Shown here in pieces: positions 8,627 to 42,429 of a DNA stretch of 64,000 bases; positions within the stretch are counted from its first letter, which is position 1; every line of letters begins with the position of its first letter. The DNA is taken from the NCBI GenBank assembly GCA_964535825.1, contig CAZHUC010000003.1, forward strand, positions 6,485 to 70,484. The letters are read 5' to 3'. The position numbers and the translations under genes are program-made. The notes under the pieces are model-generated. The model did not search any database and was not told the origin of the DNA. It saw only the letters and a list, made by a program, of their open reading frames with translations. Source of the DNA: an uncultured Rickettsiales bacterium. GTDB taxonomy: Bacteria > Pseudomonadota > Alphaproteobacteria > Rickettsiales > SXRF01.

Positions 8627-8629
8627 ACA

Positions 8630-22416: not shown

Positions 22417-22419
22417 TAT

Positions 22420-23811
22420 ATGAAACTGAACCACATGAATATTTTCAGGCACAATACTATGCGATCGTGGGTACGGTATCTGAACACCGTCTTTGCACGA
22501 TATTTTATCGATGATGTGTCTACGCTCAGCCAGTCACAGGCATTCAAGGAAACATCACTGCCGAAATTGCTGACACTGACCATGGCCACGCTTTCAGTGT
22601 CGACATTAGCTTTCATCGGCTGGTCTGCCATTACGCCAGTTAAAGAACTTGCGCGCACAGAAGGGCAGGTCGTGCCTACCGGATATAGCCGGCTGGTGCA
22701 ACATCTGGAAGGCGGGCTGGTCCGCGAGATACTGGTACATGAAGGTGATTTTGTTCAAAAGGATCAGGTGTTGGTGCGGCTCGATGGCGCAGGCACAGAA
22801 GAAGATCTGCGTGAACAGGAGGCGCGTGTACGCGGGCTTTCTCTCCAGCATGAACGGCTGCGGGCGCTGTTGGAAGGTCGCAAGCCGGATTTTAGCAGAT
22901 TTCCTGCCGATAAATCAGATATTGCTGAGCAGCAGAAAATGTTCGATACCGCTCAGGAAGCGCGTAGGCGTGAACGCGCCGTGCTGGAGGAACAGATAGC
23001 GCAAAAAGAAACAGCGATCACTCGTATCGAGCAATCGCTGGCCACAGCAAAATCCAACCTTGCGCTTTCGGGTGAATCGCAGGCCATATATGCCAAGCTT
23101 GCAAAGGATGGACTCACCGCGCGCACCACCTATATCAAGAAACAGGAAGAATACAATTCGCGCGAAGGCGATGTTTCCTCACTCTCGCGGCAGAAAGAAG
23201 AAGCCACCGATGAATTAACGGAATATCGCCAACGACTTGACGCACTGACCGCCCAGCAGCGCGATAGTGCATATAGTGAATTGCACCGTGTAGAGTCGGA
23301 TCTGGCGCAGGCCTCAGAGAACCTGAAGAAACGGCAGGACAGAGTAGGACGTCTGGATGTCCGTTCACCAGTGATGGGATATATCAAAGGACTAAAACTA
23401 AATACTATCGGTGCAGTCATTCCTGCCGGCCAGACACTCATGGAGATTGTGCCGGTGGAAGAGCAATTGGTGGTCGAGCTTAAGATCATGCCGCAGCAGA
23501 TCGGCAGGGTAGAGACCGGCCAGACTGTGCAGGTAAAGATAGATTCTTACGACTATGTGCGCTTCGGCACGATCGAAGGCAGGCTGGAGAGTATTTCTGC
23601 CACTACCTTTACCGATGAAGCACGCCGTGAAGATTATTATAAAGGGCGCGTGCGCATGGCAAAGAGCTATGCCGGTCATGTGCCGGGACTTCATCCCATC
23701 ATTCCGGGGATGACAGTGGATGCAGATATTGTAACCGGCGAGAAGAGCGTGCTTGCCTACCTTCTGAAACCTATACGCTCAGCCATGTATAACTCTATGA
23801 CGGAGCAATAA
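22420..23811 (+). CDS. HlyD-family type I secretion membrane fusion protein
   Basis: One N-terminal TM, a long coiled-coil region, lipoyl/beta-barrel motifs and the C-terminal GMTV.ADI.TG.KSVL.YLLKP signature of the HlyD family. Confidence 0.9.
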   Translation: MKLNHMNIFRHNTMRSWVRYLNTVFARYFIDDVSTLSQSQAFKETSLPKLLTLTMATLSVSTLAFIGWSAITPVKELARTEGQVVPTGYSRLVQHLEGGLVREILVHEGDFVQKDQVLVRLDGAGTEEDLREQEARVRGLSLQHERLRALLEGRKPDFSRFPADKSDIAEQQKMFDTAQEARRRERAVLEEQIAQKETAITRIEQSLATAKSNLALSGESQAIYAKLAKDGLTARTTYIKKQEEYNSREGDVSSLSRQKEEATDELTEYRQRLDALTAQQRDSAYSELHRVESDLAQASENLKKRQDRVGRLDVRSPVMGYIKGLKLNTIGAVIPAGQTLMEIVPVEEQLVVELKIMPQQIGRVETGQTVQVKIDSYDYVRFGTIEGRLESISATTFTDEARREDYYKGRVRMAKSYAGHVPGLHPIIPGMTVDADIVTGEKSVLAYLLKPIRSAMYNSMTEQ

Positions 23812-23812
23812 T

Positions 23813-24775
23813 ATGAAAGCTGCAACGCTTGCTGTGCCTGTATCCGTATCGGCCATGCCAGTACGGAAACCTGCCTTGTTAGCTGTAGATGATGACCGTG
23901 TCATGCTCTCTATGCTGACGCAGATACTCGAAGGATTTGGCTACACTGCCCATAGTGCGAGCTCTGGCAGTCAGGCATTGCAGACGTTGCTAGCATCACA
24001 CGATACCATTGATGCGATCATACTGGATCAGGAAATGCCAGGGCTTGATGGTTTGCAGGTGGTGGCACAGATGAAAGCCGATCCCAAACTATCTTCTATT
24101 CCCATCATCATGCTCACAGGGAATTCAGCGCAGGAGAAGATCCGTGAGGGCATAGATGCAGGTGTGTTCTATTATCTGGTGAAGCCTGCCTCAGAGGATC
24201 TGATAAAAAGTGTTGCAGCGGCAGCTGTGCGTGAAAGAAAGCACCGGCGCATCCTTTCGACCCAGCTAGGTCGCTATGATGTGGCACTTAAGGCGGTAAC
24301 TACAGCACATATACAGGTGCGCAGTCTTTCTGAAGCAGAAAATGTAGGGTGTATGATAGCATCCTGCTTTCCCGTACCAGAACGTGTGGTGACCGGGCTG
24401 ATGGATCTTCTGGTGAATGCAGTAGAGCACGGCAATCTTGGCATCACATATGAAGAAAAAACGCAATTACTTCAGGAGAATCGCTGGCAGGATGAAATAG
24501 CCCGCAGATTAACTCTCCCGGAATATGCAGAAAAGATAGCTGATGTTGTATATCAGCGGAAACCAGAAGGGTGGTTCGTGCAGATCACGGATCAGGGTAA
24601 GGGGTTCGACTGGCGGCGTTACTGGCAGATCGATCCTGCGCAGGCCACAGCCAGTCATGGCCGCGGTATCGCGCGGGCAAGGCTTCTTTCCTTCGATAAG
24701 ATAGCATACAACGAAGCAGGCAATCAGGTGACGGTAATGGTACAGGCATCTGCTGCGGATGATTTCACATGGTGA
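23813..24775 (+). CDS. Response-regulator receiver fused to an RsbW/SpoIIAB-like HATPase (serine-kinase/anti-sigma-type) domain
   Basis: REC motifs (LLAVDDD, IILDQEMPGLDG, MLTG, VKP). The C-terminal part has LVNAVEHGN and ITDQGKGFD motifs of the HATPase_c_2 type. It starts 2 nt after the hlyD-like stop. Confidence 0.78.
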   Translation: MKAATLAVPVSVSAMPVRKPALLAVDDDRVMLSMLTQILEGFGYTAHSASSGSQALQTLLASHDTIDAIILDQEMPGLDGLQVVAQMKADPKLSSIPIIMLTGNSAQEKIREGIDAGVFYYLVKPASEDLIKSVAAAAVRERKHRRILSTQLGRYDVALKAVTTAHIQVRSLSEAENVGCMIASCFPVPERVVTGLMDLLVNAVEHGNLGITYEEKTQLLQENRWQDEIARRLTLPEYAEKIADVVYQRKPEGWFVQITDQGKGFDWRRYWQIDPAQATASHGRGIARARLLSFDKIAYNEAGNQVTVMVQASAADDFTW

Positions 24776-24779
24776 TGCC

Positions 24780-27539
24780 ATGACGGATGAAACCGATATT
24801 GTCATTGAACTTACCCACAAGCGGATCGTACGCAGTTATCGTATCGCACTTTCGCTGGTTGCGTGCGTAGTTATTTCCATTGCCGGTATTACCACACATC
24901 TGCTGTCCGATCAGGAAACCAGTGCCGCACTTATCAATGTTGCTGGTAAACAGCGGGCATTGTCACAGCGTATTGCACTATTTACCATGGAATTGTCGGT
25001 CATCCGCGAGAGTGAACGGACAACGATCCTACAATCGCTGATGAGGTCGATCGATGAAATGGATCATGCGCATCAGGCCTTGTTACACGGCAACCCGTTA
25101 CGGCAGTTGCCTAACCTTCGTTCCGATACATTAAAGAAAATGTATTATGAAGCACCTCTTTTCCTGGATAAGCAGGTAGCGGAATATCTGGCCAATGCCC
25201 GGCAGATCTTACGATTGCCACCAGATCAGATCACCCAGGATCACCAGCTAGTGCAGGCACTGGTCAGCCAGGCAAACCAAAGGATACTTGACTCACTGGA
25301 TGCAGCGGTAACGCAATACCAGCATGAAAGCGAAGAGTATACCCGCTTCTTGTATGATGCCGTGGTGATACTCTCAGTAGCAGCTTTGTTACTGCTTGCT
25401 GCGGTCGCCATCTTTGTACTTAAGCCTGCGGTCGATTATGTATCACAGGCACATCGAAAATTGATCGAACTGAACAAACTCAAAGGTGATTTCCTTGCCA
25501 ATATGAGCCACGAGATTCGTACCCCGATGAACGGGATCTTCGGTATGACGGAGCTATTGCTGGAATCTTCCCTGAACCAGCGTCAGCAGCAATATGTGCG
25601 GACATTGCAGAACTCTGCCGATCACCTGCTTGGCCTAATCAATGATATTCTGGATTTTTCAAAGCTCGAAGCGGGCCAGATGAAACTTGATCCTATCCGG
25701 TTCAACCTGCTGTCAACGATAGAAGACGTTCTGGATCTGCTGGCCGCCCGTGCGCGCGAAAAGAATATAGAGCTATTGCTGAGATATGCACCAGGCACAC
25801 CGCGTTTTGTGGTGACCGACCCGGGGCGTATGCGTCAGATATTGTTCAACCTCATCGGCAATGCCATTAAGTTTACCGATAAAGGCTATGTGCTGATCAA
25901 TGTGGAATATATAGCTGCAGAACATGGTGTGGACAGCAAGGCATGGTTGAAAGTGCGCGTGGAAGATACAGGGATCGGCATCCCTGAAGACAAGATCAAT
26001 GCACTGTTCGCCAAATTCATGCAGGTGGAGAGTGGCAGCACCCGCGCGCGGCAAGGGACTGGCCTGGGGCTTGCCATATGCCGCAATCTGATACGTCTGA
26101 TGGGTGGTGATATACGCGTCGAAAGTACACCGGGTAAGGGTACGGTATTCAGCTGGGAGATACCACTACAAGAAGCAGGCGACCGGGAAAATACAACCAG
26201 CAAACATGAAAAACTTTCAGGATTACGAGTGTTGCTGGTGGATGACCTCGCGCCGAACCGTACGATGTACTCTGAGACACTGATCGCGGCGGGTATGGAA
26301 TGCCTGATCGCTGAGAATGCCGATGAGGCAATATCCCGCCTGCGCTATGAAGCGGCGAACAACAGGCCCATACAAGCGATTATCACAGATTTTGTTATGC
26401 CTGATAAGGATGGTATCGCGCTGACGCGCTTTGTGAAATCAGAAGATACGTTAAAAAATATACCAGTCATCATACTAAGCTCAGCTGGTGAGAGTGGGCT
26501 GGTAAAGCAATTCTCTGATGCCGGTGCAAGCGCGTGTTTGAATAAACCTGCCTCACGCCAGCAGTTATATGACACACTGGTACATGTGCTGGAAGCAGTA
26601 GAGCGAGGTGATTCCAGTAATATTATCACTACGGAAGCAAGTGGCGCACTTTCTGCGCGTCGGCTGCTGTCGCGGGAAAAACCACTCTACGGCACACATA
26701 TATTATTGGTGGAAGATAACCGGGTGAATATCGAGGTCGCCACTGAGATGTTACAGATCCTGGGATGCCGTGTGACTTCAGCAGAGAACGGGCAGGTGGC
26801 TGTCGAGGAAGCACAAAAACAAAAGTTTGACCTGATCTTCATGGATTGCCAGATGCCGGTGATGGATGGGTTTGAAGCTGCACAGCATATCGTTTCTCTT
26901 AAATCACAGAAGAAGATCGCGCCAGTGCCGATCATTGCACTTACGGCTAATGCTATGAAGGATGACCGTGAACGCTGCCTCGCCAGCGGTATGGATGATT
27001 ATTTGAGTAAGCCGGTGCGAAAGGCGAACCTGGAAGCATGCCTATTAAAATGGCTGCGGGATAAGCTGGAGAAAATGCCATCAACTGTGCCTGTGATGAC
27101 ATCACAGGTAAACACCGGTGATCAAACGGATGCTCCTCCGATTGTACTGGAAGTGGCAGAAGCCAATATGCAGGATTACGGTATCGATGCAGAGGCGTTT
27201 GGCCTAACACAAAAAACGTTGGGCGATAAACTGTCGACCGTGACCGGGTATTTCATGGAAGATTGTGAGGATTATCTTAAACGTATAGAAGCAGCTGTCA
27301 TGCAGGGTGACCCTTCATCAGCGGTGATGCCTGCGCATACGCTTAAAAGCTCCAGTAAACAATTCGGGCTTTTGAATATTTCGGAACTGGCAAGAAGGGC
27401 AGAGGCTTCTGCACGCGCCTATGCAAAGGGTGAGTCAGCGGAGGATATCCAGCCATTGCTTGTCCAGATGCGTGAACATTTTGAGAAAGCAAAACCATTC
27501 CTTGCCGCCATACAGTCGCAAGGGAAACAAGCTGCATGA
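24780..27539 (+). CDS. Hybrid sensor histidine kinase (PilJ/NarX-type periplasmic sensor, HisKA, HATPase, two REC domains, Hpt)
   Basis: INVAGKQRALSQRIA (PilJ/nitrate-sensor-type N-terminal motif), H-box FLANMSHEIRTPMNGI, N/G boxes (NLIGNAIKFT, DTGIGI, GTGLGLAI). Two receivers are present (LLVDD...ITDFVMPDKDG; LLVEDN...IFMDCQMPVMDG). The C-terminal Hpt has HTLKSSSKQFG. An alternative ATG lies at 24759. Confidence 0.88.
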   Translation: MTDETDIVIELTHKRIVRSYRIALSLVACVVISIAGITTHLLSDQETSAALINVAGKQRALSQRIALFTMELSVIRESERTTILQSLMRSIDEMDHAHQALLHGNPLRQLPNLRSDTLKKMYYEAPLFLDKQVAEYLANARQILRLPPDQITQDHQLVQALVSQANQRILDSLDAAVTQYQHESEEYTRFLYDAVVILSVAALLLLAAVAIFVLKPAVDYVSQAHRKLIELNKLKGDFLANMSHEIRTPMNGIFGMTELLLESSLNQRQQQYVRTLQNSADHLLGLINDILDFSKLEAGQMKLDPIRFNLLSTIEDVLDLLAARAREKNIELLLRYAPGTPRFVVTDPGRMRQILFNLIGNAIKFTDKGYVLINVEYIAAEHGVDSKAWLKVRVEDTGIGIPEDKINALFAKFMQVESGSTRARQGTGLGLAICRNLIRLMGGDIRVESTPGKGTVFSWEIPLQEAGDRENTTSKHEKLSGLRVLLVDDLAPNRTMYSETLIAAGMECLIAENADEAISRLRYEAANNRPIQAIITDFVMPDKDGIALTRFVKSEDTLKNIPVIILSSAGESGLVKQFSDAGASACLNKPASRQQLYDTLVHVLEAVERGDSSNIITTEASGALSARRLLSREKPLYGTHILLVEDNRVNIEVATEMLQILGCRVTSAENGQVAVEEAQKQKFDLIFMDCQMPVMDGFEAAQHIVSLKSQKKIAPVPIIALTANAMKDDRERCLASGMDDYLSKPVRKANLEACLLKWLRDKLEKMPSTVPVMTSQVNTGDQTDAPPIVLEVAEANMQDYGIDAEAFGLTQKTLGDKLSTVTGYFMEDCEDYLKRIEAAVMQGDPSSAVMPAHTLKSSSKQFGLLNISELARRAEASARAYAKGESAEDIQPLLVQMREHFEKAKPFLAAIQSQGKQAA

Positions 27540-31243: not shown

Positions 31244-31320
31244 CGCGGGGTGGAGCAGCCCGGTAGCTCGTTAGGCTCATAACCTAAAGGTCGTCAGTTC
31301 AAATCTGGCCCCCGCAACCA
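31244..31320 (+). tRNA. tRNA-Met (anticodon CAT), initiator-like
   Basis: 77 nt, near-identical in pattern to E. coli tRNA-fMet (cgcggggtggagcagcc.ggtagctcg...ctcataacc...ggtcg.cagttcaaatc.ggcccccgcaacca). It has the C1/A72 mismatch typical of initiators. The anticodon stem has only two of the three canonical G:C pairs. Confidence 0.9.
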
Positions 31321-31324
31321 ACCA
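31276..31324 (+). repeat. attL core (3' part of tRNA-Met plus 4 nt)
   Basis: ctcataacctaaaggtcgtcagttcaaatctggcccccgcaaccaacca is identical to 45315-45363. Confidence 0.9.
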
Positions 31325-31340
31325 GAATATAAAGATAATA

Positions 31341-31367
31341 TAGCCTCCATCGCGAGGCTATTTTTTT
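31341..31367 (+). terminator. Rho-independent terminator-like hairpin downstream of tRNA-Met
   Basis: tagcctc-catcgc-gaggcta followed by ttttttt. Confidence 0.55.
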
Positions 31368-31497: not shown

Positions 31498-32613
31498 TTA
31501 GTCATATTCTTCTACGCGCGAGAAAAATGGTAACGGTTCTGAAGTTGTATAGCCAGTACGTGCTCCAAATCCTCCGGGAAACCGCTGATACCGACCTTGA
31601 GTAGCATAAACCCTAGCCCCTCGCCGTTTGAATGCGTTAATCACCATTTTTCTAGGATGTGAACTATCATCTTTAGGCGCAGAAACATATGCCGAGAATC
31701 TGGGAGAAGTACCTTCAGGAACAATAGGCCCTAAAAGACGGTTAAGAATCGTGGGGCCAACATTGCGGCGACTGCCGTGATGCGGAATCTGAACAAACAT
31801 AAAGTCTTGAAGGGGAAGACCATTTGTTTCCGCATAATATGCTGCCATCGTTAAGCCCCAATTACCGGCATCTCCTGTCAGTAGGACACGACGCCCTGTT
31901 CCAAAATCCCCGTACAAAATAACACTGCTCTCGTTACTAGCACTAGTAATACCGCCGTCACGTAGCCGTTCTCTATCCCATTTTTCTTCTGTCCAATTTT
32001 GAACTCTAGCAATAGCTTGGTCAAAGATTCTGGCAAGCGTGGATGGTGCCTTTCCTATCCAGAAACCCTTCGTTTCGATTGCTTCTTTATCAGGGTCTGG
32101 TGTGCGGTCGAACTGTGGCAAAAGTATATCATAAACCGCTTTTGAGGGGGAGAGTACCCAGAAGGGACCAATCGCAGTACCAGCAAATGGATAATGAACG
32201 TTTATGTCTCTTTCCACCGCTATTTTGACAAGTTCAGCGAGTAGGTCATATTCCTTCACCAACTTTTGCTGAAGACCAGCGACTGTAAAGCGTTTATCAG
32301 AAAAATAAGGTAATGCCGCCTGAGCTGATGCCCAAGGTAAATGCAGCCAGAAATTCTCAACGTTTAATTTCGTCAATACTTCGCGTAATCCACATGCATG
32401 GTCAGCATCGGCATGAGTTAAAACAACATGAGAAATAATGGCATCAGTTCCAAAAGTCGTATGAATGTGTTCAACAAGCTGTTCACCAGCAGCCGCAGTG
32501 CCGCCGTCAACAATCATTAATTCGTAGGCTTCAGGCGTGCCATATCTAATGACAATAGCATCGCCCGCTTTAGAAGCGTCGCCTACCGGCAAAAATTCGA
32601 TTTCGCAATCCAT
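31498..32613 (-). CDS. ComEC/Rec2-type metallo-beta-lactamase-fold protein (371 aa)
   Basis: MBL motifs in order: MIVDGG, VVLTHADADHACGL (HxDxDH type), LLTGDAG, QIPHHGSRRN. Start is taken at the internal ATG 32613 (MDCEIEF...), 2 nt after the stop of the upstream gene. Confidence 0.75.
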   Translation of the reverse strand: MDCEIEFLPVGDASKAGDAIVIRYGTPEAYELMIVDGGTAAAGEQLVEHIHTTFGTDAIISHVVLTHADADHACGLREVLTKLNVENFWLHLPWASAQAALPYFSDKRFTVAGLQQKLVKEYDLLAELVKIAVERDINVHYPFAGTAIGPFWVLSPSKAVYDILLPQFDRTPDPDKEAIETKGFWIGKAPSTLARIFDQAIARVQNWTEEKWDRERLRDGGITSASNESSVILYGDFGTGRRVLLTGDAGNWGLTMAAYYAETNGLPLQDFMFVQIPHHGSRRNVGPTILNRLLGPIVPEGTSPRFSAYVSAPKDDSSHPRKMVINAFKRRGARVYATQGRYQRFPGGFGARTGYTTSEPLPFFSRVEEYD

Positions 32614-32615
32614 GA

Positions 32616-33482
32616 CTACAACCTGCCTATACCAAAGAGCATGTTGCGTGTTACCGGTGCTGAAGAGGTTGAAATACGCCAAGTACCTCCTGCATCCACG
32701 TCTATAGTGATTTTTCCATCACTTCGGGTAGTAAATACCTTACGGGGGGCTTCAGCAGTTGTTACGCACCCTCTGGTACGGTTCGCGTACCAGTTTACAG
32801 TTTCTTGGGTTGCATGCTCGATACCAGCGTCTGAAATAATGACCGCAGCGGGAATCCAGTTAGTAAATAGCTCTTCATAGCAACCATTCTCACGGCCATG
32901 ATGCGAGGCAACCAACACCGTAGTACCGGCCAAATCCGCCATAAAGCCGGGTTGTCGCATAATCTGTCGCCAGCCTGCTACTTCAAGGTCGCCGGGAAAC
33001 AAAATCTTAAATGCGCCGTACTTTACAAAGGTCGCTATGCTCAGGTTATTGGCATCGGTAAATTGTCCCGGTGCAGTACCATAGGTATTCCAGTAGGAAC
33101 TGTAAGTAACTTGGCCGAAGTCTAAACTTACAGATGCACCACCCGACTGTGCCTCTACCCACTGCAACCAGCTATAAATGTTCTGCACTCCCGGTCCCAT
33201 GCCAAATGCCGCCTTCATGGCGTAAAGTTGGCGGGAACTAATCGTACGATTTCTAATTCTGGCAGCGATATTGCAGTTTTGTGTCAGCCTGACGATATCA
33301 CTCGTATGGTCTTCATCATAGTTGGTATGTATTAAGGCGTCGATTGTTTGACCGCGGAAATGATTTGACGGCCTCCACCCTGTGCTGCTGTTATGCCCAG
33401 CATCAATCATGAGCTTTTTCCCGTTCGGGCAATGAATCATGGCGCATTGGCCATGTTCGACATCGAATATCTCAACGCGCAT
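32616..33482 (-). CDS. ComEC/Rec2-type metallo-beta-lactamase-fold protein, divergent metal motif (288 aa)
   Basis: MBL motifs: MIDAGHN, LIHTNYDEDHTSDI (the second His of HxHxDH is replaced), LFPGDLE, VASHHGRENG. Confidence 0.72.
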   Translation of the reverse strand: MRVEIFDVEHGQCAMIHCPNGKKLMIDAGHNSSTGWRPSNHFRGQTIDALIHTNYDEDHTSDIVRLTQNCNIAARIRNRTISSRQLYAMKAAFGMGPGVQNIYSWLQWVEAQSGGASVSLDFGQVTYSSYWNTYGTAPGQFTDANNLSIATFVKYGAFKILFPGDLEVAGWRQIMRQPGFMADLAGTTVLVASHHGRENGCYEELFTNWIPAAVIISDAGIEHATQETVNWYANRTRGCVTTAEAPRKVFTTRSDGKITIDVDAGGTWRISTSSAPVTRNMLFGIGRL

Positions 33483-33501
33483 CAGTTTTCCTCTTTACCC
33501 T

Positions 33502-34185
33502 TTACTCTTTATACGCATAGGCTTTGAGCATTTCGCCCGCAAAACAACTATAGAACTTAATAAAGCGTACAAGCATCCCCATGCTCAAAATAATTGCAGT
33601 CCATGCCACGATAAGGGCAGTTTCGTCGGTGGCCCCACGAGTAAAGAGCAGTATTGCAGCGACCAAGAAGCTAACGGTCGTGTTTCGGGCAAAGCCATAT
33701 TGGTTTCGGAAGTCATCCATCCGCTTACGGGCATCTTCGTTTTTACGGGCATGTCGGTAAGCCGCATCAAAAATAACGTCAGGATTTGTAGTAATTTGAG
33801 CCTGCGTCAGGCCTTCTTCACGTTGGGCCAGATTGAAAATCTTATTGCGCGTATTTTCTGAAAGTGGGGCATAATACCGTCCAACAAATATGGTGCTTAT
33901 TAGCCAATCAAGCCACCCGGCCTTGTCAGACAATAGAACGGCCGCGGGCGGGCGGAGAATCTTCCGAGCGAAGCACATTTCTATGATAATTGAGGATGGG
34001 ATGGCGATAATCTGCCCAACAATATAGGCTAGGGCTACGGTCAATACGCCCTGCATGAATGTTGGTGTACCGGTTATAAGCAGTGTTCCACCCGTTAAGC
34101 TGTAGTCGAGGGCGAACAGCACCGGTAATCCCGCTGCCAGATACCCGTAAAAATCATAATCTGTGAACGGAAACCACTCTTTCAT
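33502..34185 (-). CDS. Multi-pass membrane protein, hypothetical (227 aa)
   Basis: About four or five hydrophobic segments (aa ~13-30, 43-72, 91-105, 172-188, 193-215) flank a charged helical loop. It is the first gene of the three-gene operon, with a 19-nt gap to the next gene. No family recognised. Confidence 0.65.
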   Translation of the reverse strand: MKEWFPFTDYDFYGYLAAGLPVLFALDYSLTGGTLLITGTPTFMQGVLTVALAYIVGQIIAIPSSIIIEMCFARKILRPPAAVLLSDKAGWLDWLISTIFVGRYYAPLSENTRNKIFNLAQREEGLTQAQITTNPDVIFDAAYRHARKNEDARKRMDDFRNQYGFARNTTVSFLVAAILLFTRGATDETALIVAWTAIILSMGMLVRFIKFYSCFAGEMLKAYAYKE

Positions 34186-34375
34186 CCCGTAGCCTCATAA
34201 AATTTCAATGCGAAAGATATGGGAAGCATAATGAACCTGTACAAGTGCTTAAGCAAAATTGTTTTTGTTAACTATTTGGTTCAGCAGAGGCTTTATACGT
34301 AAAGGCCTATCTTTTAGGCAATTGATTAACCATCTGTTATTGAAATATAAACCATTACACTGTATAGTTATCTGC

Positions 34376-34681
34376 ATGTTGCGCATGTTTTTTACATTAC
34401 TGGTAGTTCTCGGCCTGATGGCATCTCCCGTGCTGGCAGACCAGTGTGCACTCGGGCATGAAGCAGTGTGCGCGGCTTTCGACCATCAGGATACAAACGG
34501 TAACGATAACGAACACGTACAGCATGCAGGCTGCTGCCATGGTATGCAGGCCGAGCGTATCGCGCCTTCATCATTTGACATAAGCCTTACCGCATATACC
34601 ACTTCTATCCCGCGTCACCCGGATGGCCTGATTCCACAGGCTGAACTTGCTCCGCTCTTAGAACCTCCCTCTCACGCTTAA
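34376..34681 (+). CDS. Small exported His/Cys-containing protein upstream of czcCBA (CzcI-like position)
   Basis: Start is taken at ATG 34376 (MLRMFFTLLVVLGLMASPVLA/D signal peptide). The mature part contains HxxxC, CCH and several His. The assignment rests on position only. Confidence 0.45.
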   Translation: MLRMFFTLLVVLGLMASPVLADQCALGHEAVCAAFDHQDTNGNDNEHVQHAGCCHGMQAERIAPSSFDISLTAYTTSIPRHPDGLIPQAELAPLLEPPSHA

Positions 34682-34768
34682 TAACACTTTCGTTGCCTGA
34701 CACGCAGTAGGTGCTTGTGTACCTGCCGCATTGCTCAGGACAGTGTCATTTTAAGCGTGAGAAATAGT

Positions 34769-36040
34769 ATGCGGTCAATTTATTGGATTCTGGGATGTGC
34801 TGTTTTTTATAGCCACCTTGTGGTTGCAGCAGAGCAGCCAACACTGTCATTAGCGGATGCTACCCAGCGAGCACTTGCGGCATCGCCACATATCAAAGCG
34901 TCCGGCGCAGCATTGGAAGCCAGTAAAGGCGAACATCAGCAGGCGGGGGCGTTACCCAACCCGGAACTAGGCGTGGAAGCTGAGAATGTCGCCGGTGGAG
35001 GCCCGTATAGCGGGTTCGACTCGGCGGAAGTGACGCTGGGTGTTTCGCAGCAAATCGAACTGGGTGGCAAGCGCAGCAGCCGGGTGAATATAGCGCAGCA
35101 GAACATGACGCTGGCAGATATGGATAACACTGCTGCACGTCTCACGCTCATCCGCGATGTGACGGTTGCCTATGCCGATGTCGCTGCCGCCGAAGCGCAG
35201 GTCACGCTGGCCGAAGAACAGAAGAAACTGGCCGAAGGCATTCTGCGTAATGTTGCCAAGCGCGTGGAAGCAGCCCGTGACCCATTGATTGAGCGCAGCA
35301 AGGCGCAAGTTGCCATGTCCACCAGCACGATTGCGCTGGATAAGGCGCAGCGGGAATTGACCGTTGCTCGCAAGCGTCTGAATAGCCTATTGGGTGAACA
35401 GAGCAGTGACTACGTGCTGGATAATGAGGCGTTCTTTAACATCACTGAGCCACCAACTTCGGAGGCTTTGGAAAAAGCACTGGCCAAAAATCCCGACATT
35501 GCCCGCTGGCAGGCAGCTATTGCTCGTAGTGAGGCGACATTGGAACTGGAACAGGCAAACGCTGTTCCTGACCCGCGTATCAATGTAGGGGTGCGTGAGT
35601 TTCGGGAGACGAATGACCGGGCTTTTGTGGTGGGGCTTTCCATCCCGATTCCGGTGTTTAACGCCAATCAAGGCAACATCGCTAAGGCCAACGCCGAAGT
35701 AAATCGCACCGGATTTGAAGCATCGCAGGCGAAGGTAACGTTGGGGGCGGAGGCTACGCGGACATCCGAGGAACTGCACTCGGCTTATAGCCAAGCTAAG
35801 ACGCTGAGAGATTCCATCCTGCCTGCGGCGAAGAAAGCCTTTGTATTGGCGCAGGAAGGTTATGATGTGGGCCGTTTCCCGTATCTCGAAGTGCTGGACG
35901 CGCAGCGCACCCTATACGGCGCACGCGAACAGTATCACGCTGCCCTGAAAGAATACCATACCAAACGTGCAGAGCTGGAGCGGCTCACTGCCACCCATCT
36001 GCCTGCATCTGAAATAAAAGAGGTTTCCCATGCGCAATAA
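34769..36040 (+). CDS. czcC: Heavy-metal efflux outer-membrane factor (CzcC/TolC family)
   Basis: Signal peptide from MRSIYWIL, two OEP repeats, and its position first in a CBA-type operon. Confidence 0.85.
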   Translation: MRSIYWILGCAVFYSHLVVAAEQPTLSLADATQRALAASPHIKASGAALEASKGEHQQAGALPNPELGVEAENVAGGGPYSGFDSAEVTLGVSQQIELGGKRSSRVNIAQQNMTLADMDNTAARLTLIRDVTVAYADVAAAEAQVTLAEEQKKLAEGILRNVAKRVEAARDPLIERSKAQVAMSTSTIALDKAQRELTVARKRLNSLLGEQSSDYVLDNEAFFNITEPPTSEALEKALAKNPDIARWQAAIARSEATLELEQANAVPDPRINVGVREFRETNDRAFVVGLSIPIPVFNANQGNIAKANAEVNRTGFEASQAKVTLGAEATRTSEELHSAYSQAKTLRDSILPAAKKAFVLAQEGYDVGRFPYLEVLDAQRTLYGAREQYHAALKEYHTKRAELERLTATHLPASEIKEVSHAQ

Positions 36041-37022
36041 GAAAATCCTGACACTCGCGGTACTGGCCGCACTCATTATCGGTGGGTTCATGTTCTGGCG
36101 CGAGGATGGTCATGAACATGCTCCTGCTGAACAGCAAGCGCATGCGCATAGCGAAGAAGAAAAAGATGAACACGGGCACGCGCACGGCGAAGGGGAGCAT
36201 GGTGAGGAAGGCCATGTGGAGGTAACTCAGGAAATTGCTGTTGAGTCCGGCATCACGGTGGAAGAAGTAGCTCCAGCGACGGTACGCGAGACGGTACAGC
36301 TTACCGGGCGCATACTCCTCAACCAGAATATATCTGCTTATGTGAAGGCGCGTTTTTCCGGCGTGGTGCGCGAGGTGAAGAAGAGCGTAGGCGACACCGT
36401 GGCCAAAGGTGACGTACTGGCGATGGTAGAAAGCAACGACAGCTTGCAGGTCTATCCGGTAACGGCACCGCTTGGTGGCACTGTACTGGAACGCAGCGTC
36501 AATGCAGGCGATACGGCGAGCGATGCACCCATTTTTGTGATTTCCGACCTTTCACAGCTTTGGACTGAGTTCCACGTGTTCCCGCAGGACAGCAGGCATG
36601 TGCAGATGAATCAGAATGTGCGCGTCAGTGGCATACAGGATAATCTCGTGGGCGATGCGCAGGTGTTTTCCATGCTGCCGGTGGCGGAAAGTGCCACGCA
36701 GACGCTGGTGATGCGCGCATTGCTGCCCAATCCAGAAGGCAAATGGCGACCCAGCATGATTGTGCATGGTGATGTGGCGACAGCAGAAAAGGATGTGTCG
36801 CTTGCTGTGAAAACGGAAGCCATACAGCGCATAGGCGAGGATTCAGTGGTGTTCGTGCAGGAGGGCGACCGTTTTGAGATGCGTAAGCTGAAATTGGGCA
36901 TCAGTGACGCGGAGATGACGGAAGTGCTGGAGGGTGTGAATGCAGGTGAGAAATACGCAAGCACGAACAGCTTCCTGCTGAAAGCCGAACTCGGCAAATC
37001 CGAAGCCAATCATGAACACTGA
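36030..37022 (+). CDS. czcB: Heavy-metal efflux RND periplasmic adaptor (CzcB/CusB family) with His-rich N-terminus
   Basis: An N-terminal TM is followed by a HEHAPAEQQAHAHSEEEKDEHGHAHGEGEHGEEGH tract, then membrane-fusion-protein lipoyl/beta-barrel motifs. Confidence 0.88.
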   Translation: MRNKKILTLAVLAALIIGGFMFWREDGHEHAPAEQQAHAHSEEEKDEHGHAHGEGEHGEEGHVEVTQEIAVESGITVEEVAPATVRETVQLTGRILLNQNISAYVKARFSGVVREVKKSVGDTVAKGDVLAMVESNDSLQVYPVTAPLGGTVLERSVNAGDTASDAPIFVISDLSQLWTEFHVFPQDSRHVQMNQNVRVSGIQDNLVGDAQVFSMLPVAESATQTLVMRALLPNPEGKWRPSMIVHGDVATAEKDVSLAVKTEAIQRIGEDSVVFVQEGDRFEMRKLKLGISDAEMTEVLEGVNAGEKYASTNSFLLKAELGKSEANHEH

Positions 37023-37033
37023 GGAACCACGCC

Positions 37034-40000
37034 ATGATTGAACGTATCTTACAATTCTCCCTGCAACATCGGTTGCTAATTGTGCTGGCAACGGCGATGG
37101 TGTGCGCAGTAGGGCTTTATTCCCTGCAAAAACTGCCGATAGATGCAGTGCCGGACATCACCAACAAGCAGGTGCAGATTAACACCACGATGGCAGCACT
37201 CTCACCGTTTGAGATTGAAAAGCAGGTCACTTACCCGATTGAAACCGCACTTTCCGGTATTCCCGGTTTGGAAAGCACGCGTTCGCTTTCGCGCAACGGT
37301 TTCTCGCAGGTGACCGCCGTCTTTGAAGAAGACGTAGATATTTATTTCGCCCGCCAGCAGGTAAGCGAGCGATTAAGCGAAGCCCGCGAAAGCTTGCCAG
37401 AAGGTGCTGAACCGCGCATGGGGGCGATTTCTACCGGCCTTGGCGAAATCTATATGTGGACGGTTTCCTACGCCCATCCGCAGGGTAAAGGGGCAGATAT
37501 CAAAAACGGCGAACCGGGCTGGCAGAATGATGGTAGCTACCTGACCCCGGAAGGGCTCACGCTGAAAAATGAACACGAGCTGGCATCTTACCTGCGCACT
37601 GTGCAGGATTGGATTATTAAACCGCAACTCAAAAGCGTTAAGGGTGTTGCAGGTGTTGATACTATCGGCGGGTACGAGATGCAGTATCACGTGCAGCCGT
37701 ACCCGGAAAAACTCATCGCGCTGGGGCTCACGTTTAGTGATGTCATCGAATCTATCGAGCGCAACAATACCAGCACCGGCGCGGGCTTTATCGAAAAAAG
37801 TGGCGAGGCCTACATGGTGCGGGCGCATGGACGCGTGGATACGTTGGAGCAGCTTGGGCAAACCGTCGTTGCTACGTATAAGAACGTACCGGTATTCCTG
37901 AAAGACGTAGCATTCATCGGTATTGGCAGGGAATTGCGCACCGGCTCGGCTTCCATGAACGCTCAGGAAGTGGTCGCGGGTACGGCCATGATGCTGATTG
38001 GCGAAAACAGCCGTACTGTATCCGAAGCCGTGGATAAAAAACTCATGGAAGTGAATAAAAGCCTGCCACCGGATATTGTGGCCAAGACCGTGCTTAACCG
38101 CACCAAGCTGGTGGATTCTACTATCGCCACCGTGCAAACGAATCTGACAGAAGGTGCGTTGCTGGTTATTGCCGTGCTATTCCTATTGCTCGGTAATTTC
38201 CGCGCTGCGCTGATTACGGCACTGGTTATTCCCATTGCCATGCTGATGACAGCAACCGGCATGGTACGTGCCGGTATCAGCGGCAATTTGATGAGCCTCG
38301 GCGCACTGGATTTCGGCCTGATTGTGGATGGTGCGGTCATCATCACGGAAAACGCGTTGCGCAGGCTTGCCATGCGCCAGCATCATGAGGGACGTTTGCT
38401 CAATCTCTCGGAGCGAATGCACGAAGTAATGGCAGCCAGCAAGGAAATGATTCAGCCCACCGTGTTTGGGCAGGCCATCATCATCCTTGTCTATGTGCCG
38501 CTGCTGACGTTTTCCGGCATAGAAGGAAAAATGTTCGAGCCGATGGCGATGACGGTTATCTTCGCGCTGGTGGCGGCCTTCATCTTGTCGCTTACTTTCG
38601 TGCCTGCCATGATTGCGCTGTTCGTCACCGGCAAGGTTGAGGAGAAAGAAAGCAAGGCGGTCTCCAAGGCAAAGAACTGGTATGTACCATGGCTTACCTT
38701 CGCTATTAACCGCCCGATGCCGGTCATCGGTGCGTCTGTTGCAGGCTTTGTGCTGTCGCTGTTGCTGTTTACCACGATGGGACGCGAGTTTATCCCCACG
38801 CTGGATGAGAAGGACATTTCCATGCACGCTATGCGTATCCCCAGCACATCGTTGGCGCAGTCGCAGGCCATGCAGTTTCAGGTAGAAAAAGCGGTCAGCA
38901 ACGTGCCGGAAGTAGATTTTGTTTTCTCCAAAATCGGCACGGCGGAAATGGCCGCAGACCCCATGCCGCCCAACGTGGCCGATACTTTTATCATTCTTAA
39001 AGACCGCAAAGAGTGGCCGGATTCCAACCTTTCCAAGCCGGAGTTGATTGCCAAGATTGAAGCGGAAGTAAACAAACTCCCCGGCAATGCCTACGAGTTC
39101 ACCCAGCCTATCCAGATGCGTTTCAACGAACTGATTTCCGGCGTGCGCAGCGACGTGGCGGTAAAAATCTATGGCGATGATTTTGAGCAGATGCAAAAAA
39201 CCGCCGCGCAAATTGCAGTGGTCTTGCGCAAAACGGATGGTGCCGCCGATGTGAAGGTTGAACAGACTGACGGTCTGCCGCGACTTGATGTTGCGCTTAA
39301 CCGCGACGCCATCGCCCATTACGGGTTAAACGTGCAAGACGTACTGGATGTGGTAGCCATGGCCATTGGCGGGCGTGAAGCCGGGCTGATTTTCCAAGGT
39401 GACCGGCGTTTTGACATCGTAGTGCGTCTGCCCGATGCCTTGCGCCAGAACATACAGGCACTGGAAAACCTGCACATCATGCTGCCTGTGAATGACAATG
39501 AGGTGCATACCACACTTAATTACGTCCCACTTAAACAAGTGGCGAAGCTCACTTTCTCCGAAGGCCCGAATCAGGTCAGCCGTGAGAATGGCAAACGGCG
39601 TGTGGTGGTACAGGCCAACGTGCGTGGGCGTGACATAGGCTCCTTTGTTGAAGAAGCGCAGGCCGGTATAGACCAGCAGGTAAAAGTTCCTGCCGGGTAC
39701 TGGCTTGAATGGGGTGGGCAGTTCAAGAACCTGCAAGAGGCAACCGCACGGCTCAGCCTCGTAGTGCCTGCCTGCTTCTTCATGATTTTTGTGCTGCTCT
39801 TTACCGCGCTCGGCTCGACAAAGCAGGCGTTGCTGGTTTTCTCCGGCGTGCCGCTGGCACTCACTGGTGGCATACTGACGCTCTGGCTGCGTGGTATGCC
39901 GTTCTCCATCTCGGCAGCAGTGGGCTTCATCGCGCTTTCGGGCATTGCCGTGCTGAACGGACTGGTGCTGATTACCAGCATCAACCAGCTTATCCGTGAA

Positions 40001-40267
40001 GGCAGAAAACCCGAAGAAGCTATCAGCGAAGGTGCGCTCATCCGCCTGCGGCCTGTATTGATGACCGCGCTGGTGGCCTCGCTCGGTTTCCTGCCGATGG
40101 CCATTGCTACCGGAGCAGGCGCAGAAGTACAAAAGCCGCTGGCAACCGTGGTCATCGGCGGGCTTATCACTGCTACCGCACTCACGCTGTTGGTGCTTCC
40201 CGCGCTTTACCGCCACTTCCAACTGGCGTTAGACGTAATGCAGAAGGAAGAAAATGTGCTTAAATAA
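37034..40267 (+). CDS. czcA: CusA/CzcA-family heavy-metal efflux RND transporter
   Basis: 1077 aa. The N-terminus MIERILQFSL.HR.L and the 12-TM RND architecture with two large periplasmic loops are typical of HME-RND pumps. Confidence 0.95.
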   Translation: MIERILQFSLQHRLLIVLATAMVCAVGLYSLQKLPIDAVPDITNKQVQINTTMAALSPFEIEKQVTYPIETALSGIPGLESTRSLSRNGFSQVTAVFEEDVDIYFARQQVSERLSEARESLPEGAEPRMGAISTGLGEIYMWTVSYAHPQGKGADIKNGEPGWQNDGSYLTPEGLTLKNEHELASYLRTVQDWIIKPQLKSVKGVAGVDTIGGYEMQYHVQPYPEKLIALGLTFSDVIESIERNNTSTGAGFIEKSGEAYMVRAHGRVDTLEQLGQTVVATYKNVPVFLKDVAFIGIGRELRTGSASMNAQEVVAGTAMMLIGENSRTVSEAVDKKLMEVNKSLPPDIVAKTVLNRTKLVDSTIATVQTNLTEGALLVIAVLFLLLGNFRAALITALVIPIAMLMTATGMVRAGISGNLMSLGALDFGLIVDGAVIITENALRRLAMRQHHEGRLLNLSERMHEVMAASKEMIQPTVFGQAIIILVYVPLLTFSGIEGKMFEPMAMTVIFALVAAFILSLTFVPAMIALFVTGKVEEKESKAVSKAKNWYVPWLTFAINRPMPVIGASVAGFVLSLLLFTTMGREFIPTLDEKDISMHAMRIPSTSLAQSQAMQFQVEKAVSNVPEVDFVFSKIGTAEMAADPMPPNVADTFIILKDRKEWPDSNLSKPELIAKIEAEVNKLPGNAYEFTQPIQMRFNELISGVRSDVAVKIYGDDFEQMQKTAAQIAVVLRKTDGAADVKVEQTDGLPRLDVALNRDAIAHYGLNVQDVLDVVAMAIGGREAGLIFQGDRRFDIVVRLPDALRQNIQALENLHIMLPVNDNEVHTTLNYVPLKQVAKLTFSEGPNQVSRENGKRRVVVQANVRGRDIGSFVEEAQAGIDQQVKVPAGYWLEWGGQFKNLQEATARLSLVVPACFFMIFVLLFTALGSTKQALLVFSGVPLALTGGILTLWLRGMPFSISAAVGFIALSGIAVLNGLVLITSINQLIREGRKPEEAISEGALIRLRPVLMTALVASLGFLPMAIATGAGAEVQKPLATVVIGGLITATALTLLVLPALYRHFQLALDVMQKEENVLK

Positions 40268-40961: not shown

Positions 40962-41579
40962 TTAAAATTGAAAGTTTACGCCCAGGTTGGCAGTAACGGC
41001 ATCTTTGACCGCGCCATCGAAATCCGCGCCCTGATAACGCACGAGTCCGCGAACATTCAGATTGTCCGTCAGCCAGTATTGTACCCCGCCGCCAAAACGT
41101 GCCTTGGTTTCGGTTTCATCAATGGAGCCGGTGCCAAGGCCGGGTGCCGAGGCTTCCACTTCGCCGGTAAGATGCGAAATGCCAACCGTACCGATAAACT
41201 CGAACTTGCCGGAATCGCCTACCGGCAGATAGCCGAGGGCGTCGAGGGTGAAGCCATGAACGCTAGTCTTGGTATTAATGCCAGTGCTGAGCACGTTAGT
41301 CTTGTCGGCCTCATCACCCCATATATACCCGGCCTCAATGCCGAGGTGCTTGTGGACACGCGCACCGACATGCAAGTGAACGCCATGCAGGGAATCGTTG
41401 GCAATATCGTCGCCGTTAATGCCGGTGCCGCCAATATCATCTTCGTAATTGACACTGGTGAACTGATAATCAGCCCCAACATAGGGCTTGAAGAAGAAAT
41501 TAGGCGTATTGGCCTGCGCTGGCGCGGATAAAAGCGCAAGTGCGGACAGGTATAGGGTGGTTTTAAGGTAGGGTTTCAT
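40962..41579 (-). CDS. Outer-membrane beta-barrel protein (OmpA-like/opacity-porin-type 8-strand barrel)
   Basis: Signal peptide MKPYLKTTLYLSALALLSAPAQA, alternating-hydrophobicity strands (YVGADYQF, GIEAGY), and a C-terminal ...NLGVNFQF with terminal Phe. Confidence 0.75.
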   Translation of the reverse strand: MKPYLKTTLYLSALALLSAPAQANTPNFFFKPYVGADYQFTSVNYEDDIGGTGINGDDIANDSLHGVHLHVGARVHKHLGIEAGYIWGDEADKTNVLSTGINTKTSVHGFTLDALGYLPVGDSGKFEFIGTVGISHLTGEVEASAPGLGTGSIDETETKARFGGGVQYWLTDNLNVRGLVRYQGADFDGAVKDAVTANLGVNFQF

Positions 41580-41958
41580 GGTCAACTCCTCGGTTGTGTT
41601 AAAGAACACACCCGTCCTGCGACGAGTGCCGGGGAGTTTGAAAACCTATCTTGTGAAAGGTCGCGCATGTCTTTAGCTTTCGCCTGAACATACACATGCG
41701 CCTCCCCGACATAAGTCGAGGAGTACGATGACGGTGTACAAACCGCACAAGATGAGGTTTCAAAGCCCCGGTGCCAGCTATGGCCAGCACTGCGCCCACC
41801 TTACGGGTAAACGCCAATAAATCAACGAGAATATGGCATGCTGCCCTGAAATACAGGCAGAAAGCCGATTTTGTGGCCACGAAGCAACATTATTTGCACT
41901 CAAGTGCACTACGTTTTTTGGACATTAAGTCGGCCTTTTCGTTGGATGGACATTACCA

Positions 41959-42429
41959 TTACTCCTTATGCATGTTATCCACCCCAGCAGATATTTGCGC
42001 CAGCGTTGCACCTGAGTGCAAAAAGTTGGGGGTTTCAAGTTTTGCCAGTTCCATAAGCATTTTCGTATAATGCGCCATCTCAGCCGTTACTTCACGGTCA
42101 AGAACCGGCAGTTCCTCTTCTTTGGCATACAGCTTCAGCAGGCGTTTTTTCTGCATAGGAACTAATTGCAGCAGTTCCTTGATACAATTTACTTTTACCG
42201 ACTCCTTAGGCTGTTCATTCAGCGGTGTATGCGACATCAACTCCTCCCGATAGCGTGACACTTGTTTACGCAGGGCCTCTTCCGATATGTCAGGCAGAAG
42301 TCCCCAGTCTTTTTTTATTTTCGTTGCTACTATTAAGGCGGATTCCCCAGCCAATAGCATGCTATTCACTTCTTTAATCTGCTCGATGGCCAAGCAGAGA
42401 AGGCTCTTATATTTTTGTTTGATTTTCAT
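41959..42429 (-). CDS. Hypothetical island protein
   Basis: 156-aa ORF whose ATG overlaps the stop of the upstream Rep-like gene by 1 nt (both at 42429). No family recognised. Confidence 0.5.
   Translation of the reverse strand: MKIKQKYKSLLCLAIEQIKEVNSMLLAGESALIVATKIKKDWGLLPDISEEALRKQVSRYREELMSHTPLNEQPKESVKVNCIKELLQLVPMQKKRLLKLYAKEEELPVLDREVTAEMAHYTKMLMELAKLETPNFLHSGATLAQISAGVDNMHKE

Follow-up and report, generated by a model that had tools for sequence, protein, structure and literature searches.

A tRNA-Met island cassette of a Csx27-like membrane protein and two ComEC-like metallo-beta-lactamase-fold proteins, a candidate defence locus in an uncultured Rickettsiales bacterium

Introduction

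The closest described relatives of the locus treated here are the phage-defence candidate PDC-M48, the anti-phage system 6A-MBL, the CRISPR accessory protein Csx27 and ComEC/Rec2. The locus consists of three adjacent genes, for a membrane protein and two proteins of the metallo-beta-lactamase (MBL) fold, MBL-1 and MBL-2, and lies in a 64,000-nucleotide stretch of contig CAZHUC010000003.1 (assembly GCA_964535825.1, positions 6,485-70,484) from an uncultured Rickettsiales bacterium; this whole stretch is called the window below. It belongs to a family of cassettes that join a small membrane protein to a ComEC-like MBL phosphodiesterase; it was acquired horizontally and is carried as cargo of an island at a tRNA-Met gene. 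Its architecture is new, combining a Csx27-like protein of four transmembrane (TM) segments with one MBL bearing the motif N-x-D-x-D-H and another bearing H-x-D-x-D-H, without Cap2/3 and without PDC-M48A. The kind of cassette is already recognised, so that the triad is not a categorically new system.

PDC-M48 (cassette CAS_00157, FAM_01875>>FAM_00178, count 63) is one of the phage-defence candidates that Payne, Hughes, Fineran & Jackson (bioRxiv 10.1101/2024.01.29.577857) identified in loci of BREX, DISARM and type I restriction-modification through “guilt by embedding”. 6A-MBL (van den Berg et al. 2024, Cell Host Microbe 32:1427) is counted in other work among the known jumbo-phage defences of P. 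aeruginosa. Papers that cite it describe it as an experimentally confirmed, ubiquitin-related anti-phage system, and in one of them the MBL pathway is said to be related to type II CBASS, with a fused E2-E1 that conjugates its “signaling enzyme”. Csx27 is an accessory membrane protein of type VI-B1 CRISPR-Cas13b (Smargon et al. 2017); its family is reported to be encoded together with natural-transformation components and ubiquitin-like systems, and is predicted to form a channel for single-stranded DNA (ssDNA) (Makarova et al. 2019, FEMS Microbiol Lett 366:fnz088).

Results

Gene structure of the cassette

The three genes are transcribed from the minus strand in the order membrane protein, MBL-1, MBL-2 (Table 1). 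An earlier note on this DNA, made from the sequence alone, had described three co-directional genes with gaps of 19 and 2 nt, and this arrangement was confirmed. The Shine-Dalgarno sequence of MBL-1 is placed seven bases ahead of its ATG, and the second gap reads TAG-tc-ATG. The mechanical open reading frame (ORF) of MBL-2 reaches back to a TTG at 32682; since all 25 aligned homologues (25/25) begin with M-x-C-E-I-E-F, the ATG at 32613 was taken as its start. Co-transcription and translational coupling of the triad are plausible from the sequence. A terminator-like hairpin lies behind MBL-2, and the number of such sites in the region is not above the shuffled expectation, which leaves the hairpin as positional evidence only.

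Database relatives number 2389 for MBL-2, 1243 for MBL-1 and 95 for the membrane protein, with best E-values to non-identical relatives of 1e-170, 1e-139 and 1e-125, respectively. Because the homologues are numerous and their E-values strong, the three ORFs are real genes rather than chance ORFs. Third-position GC content (GC3) is 0.35 in MBL-2 versus 0.49-0.50 in the membrane gene and MBL-1.

Two divergent MBL proteins of ComEC type

Neither MBL contains a TM segment, and both are probably cytoplasmic, as each begins like an ordinary soluble protein, without a hydrophobic leader sequence. The motifs of MBL-2, namely D36-G-G, H67-A-D-A-D-H72, N227-E-S-S, G-D248 and H278-H-G-S-R-R-N, are all invariant within its family, and the same is true of D27-x-G-H, N54-Y-D-E-D-H59, N-N-L-S148, G-D165 and S-H194-H-G-R in MBL-1. 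In the latter family Asn occupies the place of the canonical first His in 34/34 aligned members. As it is invariant in all of them, N-x-D-x-D-H is a family signature and not a sign of decay, and MBL-1 should be regarded, on this conservation, as catalytically competent; the HTNYDEDH motif, called degenerate in the earlier note, does not deserve that name.

Pfam detects only the N-terminal part of Lactamase_B, and for MBL-1 the score (22.6 bits) is slightly below the cut-off of 22.7. In NCBIfam, only sub-threshold matches to Avs1a, ComEC/Rec2 and the 6A-MBL enzyme were obtained. When the profile of MBL-2 relatives was compared with the PDB, the MBL domain of ComEC (9ic4) ranked first (E 1.4e-5), with a match spanning the H-x-D-x-D-H and H-H-G-S regions of MBL-2, and a further ComEC entry (30bt) ranked third. 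The AlphaFold2 (AF2) model of MBL-2, with a predicted local distance difference test score (pLDDT) of 88 and a predicted template modelling score (pTM) of 0.90, likewise found 9ic4 as its best fold match (E 1.2e-12, template modelling score 0.69 on the target), followed by the phosphorylcholine esterase Pce (2bib, 1wra) and then by generic MBL phosphodiesterases and RNases. These profile and fold matches bear out the earlier assignment to the ComEC type. In a profile-profile comparison, MBL-1 and MBL-2 align over the N-terminal 110 columns only, with a probability of 49.6%; judged by their sequences, the two are remote paralogues of the ComEC-like branch and did not arise by a recent duplication.

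MBL-2 carries a helical insertion at about residues 93-203. Its C-terminal tail (window 31498-31530) is modelled at low confidence (pLDDT 47), and the last residues F363, V367, E368, Y370 and D371 are nearly invariant (..F..VEEYD; alignment A1). The tail is regarded as a possible docking peptide because it is conserved in spite of the low confidence of its model, which suggests, by inference only, a docking motif.

A membrane protein of the Csx27 family, broadly defined

The AF2 model of the membrane protein (pLDDT 93.5, pTM 0.88) comprises four long helices, at residues 10-31, 43-76, 150-184 and 188-224, with a helical insert of ~75 residues separating TM2 and TM3. Hydropathy and the distribution of Lys and Arg also back the count of four, which settles on the lower of the “four or five” TM segments proposed before; a fifth is not found in the model. 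Fifteen Lys or Arg residues are present in the insert and 0 in the two short loops. Since the insert is thus rich in Lys and Arg and the short loops lack them, the N-terminus, the insert and the C-terminus are probably cytoplasmic. It is in these predicted cytoplasmic segments and the adjoining helix ends that the invariant residues of the family are concentrated (alignment A2), in the motifs FPFTDYDFYxYL (N-terminal), DDFRNQYGFxRN (ahead of TM3) and RFxKFYSxF (behind TM4). Two acidic residues in the modelled membrane helices, D27 in TM1 and E69 in TM2, are invariant as well.

The PADLOC Csx27 model PDLC01605 matches residues 10-205 of the 227-residue window protein (E 1.2e-5). It is also matched by 18/41 relatives scanned singly (best E 1.6e-10), and only 2-3/41 match PDC-M48A, weakly. 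The protein gave no significant fold match in the PDB or in BFVD (viral structures), and no sequence match to solved structures. On the model matches it is placed in the Csx27 family, taken in a broad sense.

The conserved unit among relatives

The survey comprised 160 related loci overall from genomes and metagenomes; MBL-1-type and MBL-2-type genes are denoted M1 and M2, and the membrane family of the window A2. The search with the membrane protein yielded 80 metagenome loci, 28 of which have at least 1.3 kb on both sides and are termed fully flanked. An M1- or M2-type MBL is adjacent to the membrane-gene relative in 22 of these 28. An M1-type MBL alone stands immediately downstream in 16/28, an M2-type MBL is followed by the membrane gene in 3/28, and two MBLs are present in another 3/28, all three of which include an M1-type MBL. 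Neither type occurs in 6/28; in four of these six a 6A-MBL enzyme (389-421 bits, cut-off 220) lies beside the membrane gene. Overall, an MBL-fold neighbour is found in 26/28, M1 being the usual partner type of the membrane family.

Starting from MBL-2, 80 species-representative genome loci were examined. The genome relatives of MBL-2 are spread widely and patchily over Acidobacteriota, Alpha-, Beta-, Gamma- and Deltaproteobacteria, Nitrospira, Eremiobacterota, Bacillota, Bacteroidota, Planctomycetota and Campylobacterota, with one archaeal metagenome-assembled genome (MAG). At 41/80 loci an ORF of 150-350 amino acids (aa) on the same strand starts within ~200 nt downstream. Thirty-seven of the 41 form two BLAST clusters, c1 (23) and c2 (14), with TM segments at both ends, and at least two TM segments are predicted in 37 of the 41. 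By hydropathy only, a small multi-TM ORF was counted within 300 nt in 49/69 fully flanked MBL-2 loci. Comparison of c1 with A2 by hhalign gave 81% (E 1e-5, 168 columns), and YGFxRN precedes TM3 in both, so that c1 is plausibly homologous, if remotely, to the window membrane family. A single superfamily for all membrane partners was considered and rejected, since c2 and PDC-M48A have no demonstrable relation by hhalign. Neither c1 nor c2 proteins matched a PADLOC model. Orientation is not constant: the membrane/MBL pair of the Rhizobium p8 plasmid is convergent and lies beside a restriction endonuclease, and on an Acinetobacter plasmid the MBL and an uncharacterised 249-aa gene diverge. What is conserved, therefore, is a small membrane protein beside a ComEC-like MBL, with gene order and orientation varying and the parts interchangeable.

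Cassettes with two MBLs recur. At L087 the same three families as in the window occur in the order membrane, M2, M1. The order is membrane, M1 (360 aa), M1 (273 aa) at L159, L161 and L162; M2, c1 membrane, M1 at L164; and M1, a third MBL type, membrane at L165-L168. L038, L057 and L072 hold further two-MBL cassettes. The closest relative of the window membrane gene (84% identity), at L084, has an MBL-1 of 67% identity and is without MBL-2, and the closest MBL-1 relatives (75%, 69%, 67%) are combined with differing partners. Membrane proteins of the window family are paired with M2-type MBLs at L087, L101, L108 and L112, and the MBL-2 family, sister to that of MBL-1, elsewhere usually has its own four-TM partner. 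The membrane/MBL-1 pair is most likely the core, to which a separately acquired MBL-2 was added by module shuffling, because the nearest relatives of the pair lack MBL-2 or have other third genes and the GC3 of MBL-2 deviates. The idea of the triad as a fixed unit was accordingly given up. A conserved fourth gene was likewise rejected, as the ~345-aa proteins that follow MBL-1 in L084 and in L164 show no relation to each other.

Comparison with known systems

The earlier note recognised no named family in the three proteins. That no longer holds, since a PADLOC run returned PDC-M48B for both MBLs and Csx27 for the membrane protein; in addition, the membrane and MBL-2 families occur inside 6A-MBL operons, so the composition is not unrecognised either. 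MBL-1 matches the PDC-M48B model PDLC04674 (E 9.8e-73), and MBL-2 matches PDLC04676 over nearly its full length (E 3e-97). The window thus resembles PDC-M48 in a small membrane protein beside an MBL-fold enzyme of the PDC-M48B type. It differs in having two MBLs and in the membrane protein: PDC-M48A has ~165 aa and two or three predicted TM segments and lies upstream of an MBL-2-type gene, as bona fide copies do at L031, L035 and L056 (E ~1e-60), whereas the 227-aa window protein has no match to PDC-M48A, and hhalign of A2 against PDC-M48A gave 5%.

In NCBIfam, 6A-MBL is recognised by NF058524 (MBL enzyme, cut-off 220 bits) and NF058523 (Cap2/3-like E2-E1-JAB, cap2_3, cut-off 320 bits). MBL-2 scores 23 bits and MBL-1 11 bits with NF058524, versus 389-442 bits for true members, so that the window MBLs are not equivalogs of the 6A-MBL enzyme; the window also differs in lacking Cap2/3 (E2-E1-JAB), and no E1, E2 or JAB match was obtained in the scanned island ORFs. 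The likeness lies in MBL-fold enzymes with an H-x-D-x-D-H motif and in the window families (A2 membrane, MBL-2) occurring as extra genes in operons that score above the NCBI cut-offs. At L066 (6414-11874, Dyella) and L073 (6573-11059, Pseudomonas), where both cut-offs are exceeded, the enzyme and cap2_3 are accompanied by an MBL-2-type third gene whose product is 39-41% identical to window MBL-2, and the fourth gene listed for the Dyella locus is a c1 four-TM membrane gene. At L106 (4637-8708) and L122 (3461-7644) the 6A-MBL enzyme and cap2_3 (577-583 bits) are followed by a membrane protein of the window family as the last gene.

With Csx27, the membrane protein shares four predicted TM helices and a near full-length model match, and its co-occurrence with 6A-MBL agrees with the published link to ubiquitin-like systems. 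The similarity to the model is, however, modest (E 1.2e-5), and the neighbours are MBL genes, a tRNA gene and czc genes instead of cas13b or a CRISPR-like array; the window contains neither a tandem-repeat array resembling CRISPR nor an Rfam CRISPR match. With ComEC/Rec2, the cassette shares the best profile and fold match of MBL-2 (9ic4), the common motif set H-x-D-x-D-H ... N-N/E-S-S ... G-D ... H-H-G-S and the tie of an MBL nuclease to a membrane component, the nuclease role being predicted for the window. By contrast, the window MBLs are free-standing and soluble, lack the OB and competence-channel domains and reach 23-26 bits with TIGR00361 (cut-off 190), and their membrane partner, a protein of its own with four TM segments, has no relationship to the channel of ComEC.

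Weak-to-moderate hidden Markov model similarity links the window MBLs to Avs1a (AVAST type 1), MBL-type LmuA (Lamassu), RTasMBL (DRT) and HamMAB. For MBL-2 the E-values in PADLOC are 1.6e-17 for LmuA and 1.9e-14 for RTasMBL; Avs1a is matched weakly in PADLOC and, at E 1e-11, in NCBIfam. Those systems add STAND NTPases, SMC-like LmuB, reverse transcriptases or Hachiman helicases; the window locus encodes no such partner. Taken together, the family matches show the ComEC-like MBL branch to be repeatedly used in immunity.

Genomic contexts of relatives

Relatives of the cassette were found on mobile elements and beside defence-type genes. At L164 the four-gene row (6149-9909) contains, after its M2-type and c1 four-TM genes, the closest relative of MBL-1 (75% identity) and an unassigned 345-aa protein; it is flanked on one side by BrxR (WYL), an N6/N4 methyltransferase and a ResIII helicase, and on the other by a serine recombinase and tRNA-Met. 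With its two MBLs, L164 is a second architecture of this sort at a tRNA-Met island. Close to L165 are a tRNA-Arg and a helix-turn-helix/ImmA-like pair. The Kordiimonas and Thiodiazotropha loci belong to elements resembling integrative and conjugative elements (ICEs), which also encode TraG/TrwB-like proteins, a serine recombinase and ArdC. L177 is accompanied by an integrase, by RelE/antitoxin and by a Tn5-like transposase that carries a DruA domain; around L179 are a serine recombinase, a LexA-like repressor and a methyltransferase.

Among the 136 nearest neighbours of MBL-2 relatives, surveyed by Pfam family, Prok-E2_A (5), JAB (5) and ThiF (4 proteins) are commonest, followed by Tle1-like proteins of type VI secretion and DNA methylases. 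DndB, type I restriction-modification subunits, AbiEii, SMODS-C, ArdC and TrbI appear as single cases, and MTase_II and PDC-S11 are also neighbours of MBL-2 relatives. A link to czc or competence genes was looked for and rejected, none being present among the commonest neighbour families, nor, for competence, among the window genes. Carriage by phages was rejected too: in 2.9 million viral contigs there were no membrane-gene relatives and only 6 MBL-1 relatives, so that the genes are almost absent there.

The tRNA-Met island and its surroundings

The cassette is part of a complete 14-kb integrative island at tRNA-Met. The tRNA gene, a flanking repeat of its 3' end and an internal integrase are all present, the two repeat copies being separated by 14,039 bp and the integrase lying just inside attR, at the island end distant from the intact tRNA. 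The triad is the cargo directly beside attL, adjoining tRNA-Met, and the edge position next to an att site that had been assigned to it earlier is thereby substantiated. GC content is 46-49% in the triad genes versus 54-55% in the czc genes, and it is also below that of the flanking chromosomal genes. The absence of an ATPase, methylase, toxin-antitoxin or competence partner, also reported earlier, still stands for the scanned island ORFs and the czc genes.

Of the remaining cargo, the czcC-like gene of the czcCBA-like operon lies 530 bp from the triad. The 156-aa and 351-aa ORFs beside the integrase have a low GC content (45%) and gave no Pfam, NCBIfam or PADLOC match. Upstream of czcC, a small ORF at 34259-34681 (+) has an internal start, MLRMFFTLLVVLGLMASPVLA..., which resembles a signal peptide and is followed by a His/Cys-rich segment; it gave no family match, and by these features it could be a periplasmic CzcI-like metal-binding protein.

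Outside the island, three further regions of the window were recorded. Just beyond attR, at 45879-48468 (-), genes for an S8 subtilase (480 aa), a 198-aa protein and an extracytoplasmic function sigma factor (184 aa) stand in a row, and the subtilase matches the generic PADLOC ‘subtilase’ model (E 2e-18). Behind a tRNA-Gln at 15488-15562, GC content is low (42% at 16-17 kb), and this stretch holds a 751-aa ORF with internal tandem repeats of 63 and 126 nt; large ORFs occupy 18557-27539, with a sensor kinase and a TolC-like gene further along. Judged by its layout, the region 15488-18527 may be another island or a locus for the secretion of a repeat protein. A cobalamin riboswitch (Rfam RF00174, 93.6 bits) is located at 1304-1504 (+), upstream of the ORF 1573-2889.

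Table 1. Features of the cassette and of the island that carries it, in window coordinates
Feature	Position	Strand	Basis
tRNA-Met (CAT), integration target of the island	31244-31320	+	ARAGORN; Rfam tRNA
attL, 52-nt direct repeat over the tRNA 3' end	31273-31324	+	repeat search
Hairpin, 8-bp stem, terminator-like on both strands, between the tRNA-Met gene and the MBL-2 stop	31340-31361	.	terminator scan
MBL-2 gene, 371 aa	31498-32613	-	ORF call and homologue alignment
MBL-1 gene, 288 aa	32616-33482	-	ORF call
19-nt spacer between membrane gene and MBL-1, with AAGAGGA Shine-Dalgarno for MBL-1	33483-33501	-	sequence
Membrane protein gene, 227 aa	33502-34185	-	ORF call
czcCBA-like resistance-nodulation-division (RND) metal-efflux operon	34715-40267	divergent from triad	Pfam OEP and CzcB, read on identical contig L001
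OmpA-like outer-membrane beta-barrel protein, island cargo	40962-41609
Two ORFs, 156 aa and 351 aa, one-base overlap at the junction, beside the integrase	41959-43484	-
Tyrosine integrase, Arm-DNA-bind_3 and Phage_integrase	43864-45195	-	Pfam
attR, second copy of the 52-nt repeat, 51/52 identical	45312-45363	+	repeat search

Discussion

The role of the cassette has to be judged from what was observed of its genes and folds, from the conservation of the metal ligands, from the families to which the proteins belong, from their genetic linkage across many taxa and from the mobile and defence-type contexts of relatives. A role in defence or against mobile genetic elements is probable. It is the best reading because of the homology to defence-associated MBLs and the contexts in which relatives are found. 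A novel defence or DNA-degradation system had been proposed earlier for this locus; the role is retained here, and the novelty is reduced, since named families already cover parts of the cassette. For the mechanism, the two MBL enzymes, cytoplasmic and with intact metal sites, would attach to the membrane protein at its conserved cytoplasmic side and, once docked, would hydrolyse nucleic-acid phosphodiester bonds of invading DNA at the inner membrane. Such an arrangement would be a split analogue of the channel and nuclease of ComEC, whose MBL domain acts beside its own channel. This membrane-docked nuclease is offered tentatively, at clearly less than an even chance. A wider form of the idea is more speculative still and is considered unlikely: the Csx27-like protein and its MBL(s) would form a membrane-anchored nuclease station, or ‘split ComEC’ gate, that destroys nucleic acid on reaching or crossing the inner membrane, with the same core reused as a common effector in the Cap2/3-regulated 6A-MBL system and, as Csx27, in Cas13b systems, and the two-MBL version of the window would combine, on a single membrane platform, two nucleases of differing substrate preferences.

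Several points weigh against a defence role or this mechanism. PDC-M48 is explicitly a candidate without experimental test (bioRxiv 10.1101/2024.01.29.577857), and the window contains its component B and not its component A, so that it falls outside the two-gene definition; the formal definition of 6A-MBL does not apply either, as neither an NF058524 enzyme nor a Cap2/3 protein is present. Our literature search returned no report of an experimental test of this exact architecture. The other scanned island ORFs matched no PADLOC model, which leaves the island with no further recognised defence gene. Most nearest neighbours of MBL-2 relatives have no defence match, and some relatives lie amid housekeeping genes; the defence-type contexts come from sampled loci with no background comparison, and they fit mobile defence-type cargo. 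With Pce as the second-best fold match of MBL-2, the substrate of the MBLs need not be nucleic acid. Physical docking, in the same way as the substrate and the protective phenotype, is what we infer, and the docking step counts among these reservations.

The membrane protein may play a more direct part. In an abortive infection system the four-TM protein would be a pore or ion-leak effector that collapses the membrane potential, with the MBL(s) as its trigger or regulator, an explanation that we hold to be rather unlikely while giving it some weight. The window-family membrane gene stands last after the MBL enzyme and Cap2/3 in L106 and L122, and type II CBASS operons often place membrane effectors last. 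It agrees with this that the MBL pathway is described as related to type II CBASS, that D27 and E69 are invariant acidic residues within the modelled TM1 and TM2, and that unrelated small membrane partners (c2, PDC-M48A) swap beside the same MBL type in the manner of interchangeable effectors. The sister accessory protein Csx28 is reported to form a pore, which points the same way. However, all metal ligands of both MBLs are strictly conserved, implying that catalysis matters, the membrane protein has no fold match to known channels in the PDB or BFVD, and about one third of MBL-2 relatives have no detectable membrane neighbour. To our knowledge, there is no pore or oligomer evidence for Csx27-type proteins. 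An obligate three-component machine, in which, as the earlier note supposed, a heterodimer of MBL-1 and MBL-2 is recruited by a membrane sensor, would explain the tight packing of the genes, with gaps of 19 and 2 nt, and the recurrence of two-MBL cassettes in independent loci with different orders, L087 having the same three families. It is nevertheless improbable, as the closest relative of the membrane gene has MBL-1 without MBL-2, the closest MBL-1 relatives carry other third genes, two MBLs are found in only three of the 28 fully flanked loci, the GC3 of MBL-2 departs from that of the pair and MBL-2 relatives usually have their own membrane partner.

Functions outside immunity were weighed on the same evidence. 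The cassette could be a split ComEC-like apparatus for DNA uptake or processing, or could serve its element through entry exclusion or conjugation competition. The nuclease domain of ComEC is the nearest solved relative, the literature links the Csx27 family to natural-transformation operons and predicted ssDNA channels, and several relatives lie in transfer regions of ICEs or plasmids beside VirB/VirD4/TrwB-like genes. The transformation component encoded with the Csx27 family is reportedly a ComEC-like MBL. Against this, no comEA, comF, dprA or pilin genes were found in the window or among the commonest neighbour families, and the MBLs, which have neither the OB nor the channel domain, stay well short of the ComEC cut-off (23-26 versus 190 bits). 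They are also probably cytoplasmic, given their soluble N-termini, and the ComEC nuclease domain acts on the outer face of the membrane. A function of this kind is thus judged quite improbable. Far less credible still is a metal-dependent hydrolase with a membrane partner acting as an accessory of czcCBA. The triad does lie close to the czcC-like gene on the same island, but it and the czc genes are transcribed away from each other, genes of the czc or RND kind are absent from the commonest families of the 136 neighbours and from the other inspected loci, and the czc neighbourhood recurs otherwise only in the identical metagenome contig L001; the survey of contexts effectively refutes the proposal.

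Conclusions

Cassettes of a small membrane protein and a ComEC-like MBL are very common, with thousands of homologues in at least 10 phyla and one archaeal MAG, and they travel on islands, ICEs and plasmids. The survey connects three subjects that are as a rule dealt with apart, the PDC-M48 candidate, the 6A-MBL anti-phage system and Csx27 of Cas13b systems. The window triad is a compact construct of three genes in which the catalytic residues are clear. Should the minimal pair or the triad protect alone, the effector core of 6A-MBL would be defined and a handle on the role of Csx27 would be gained.

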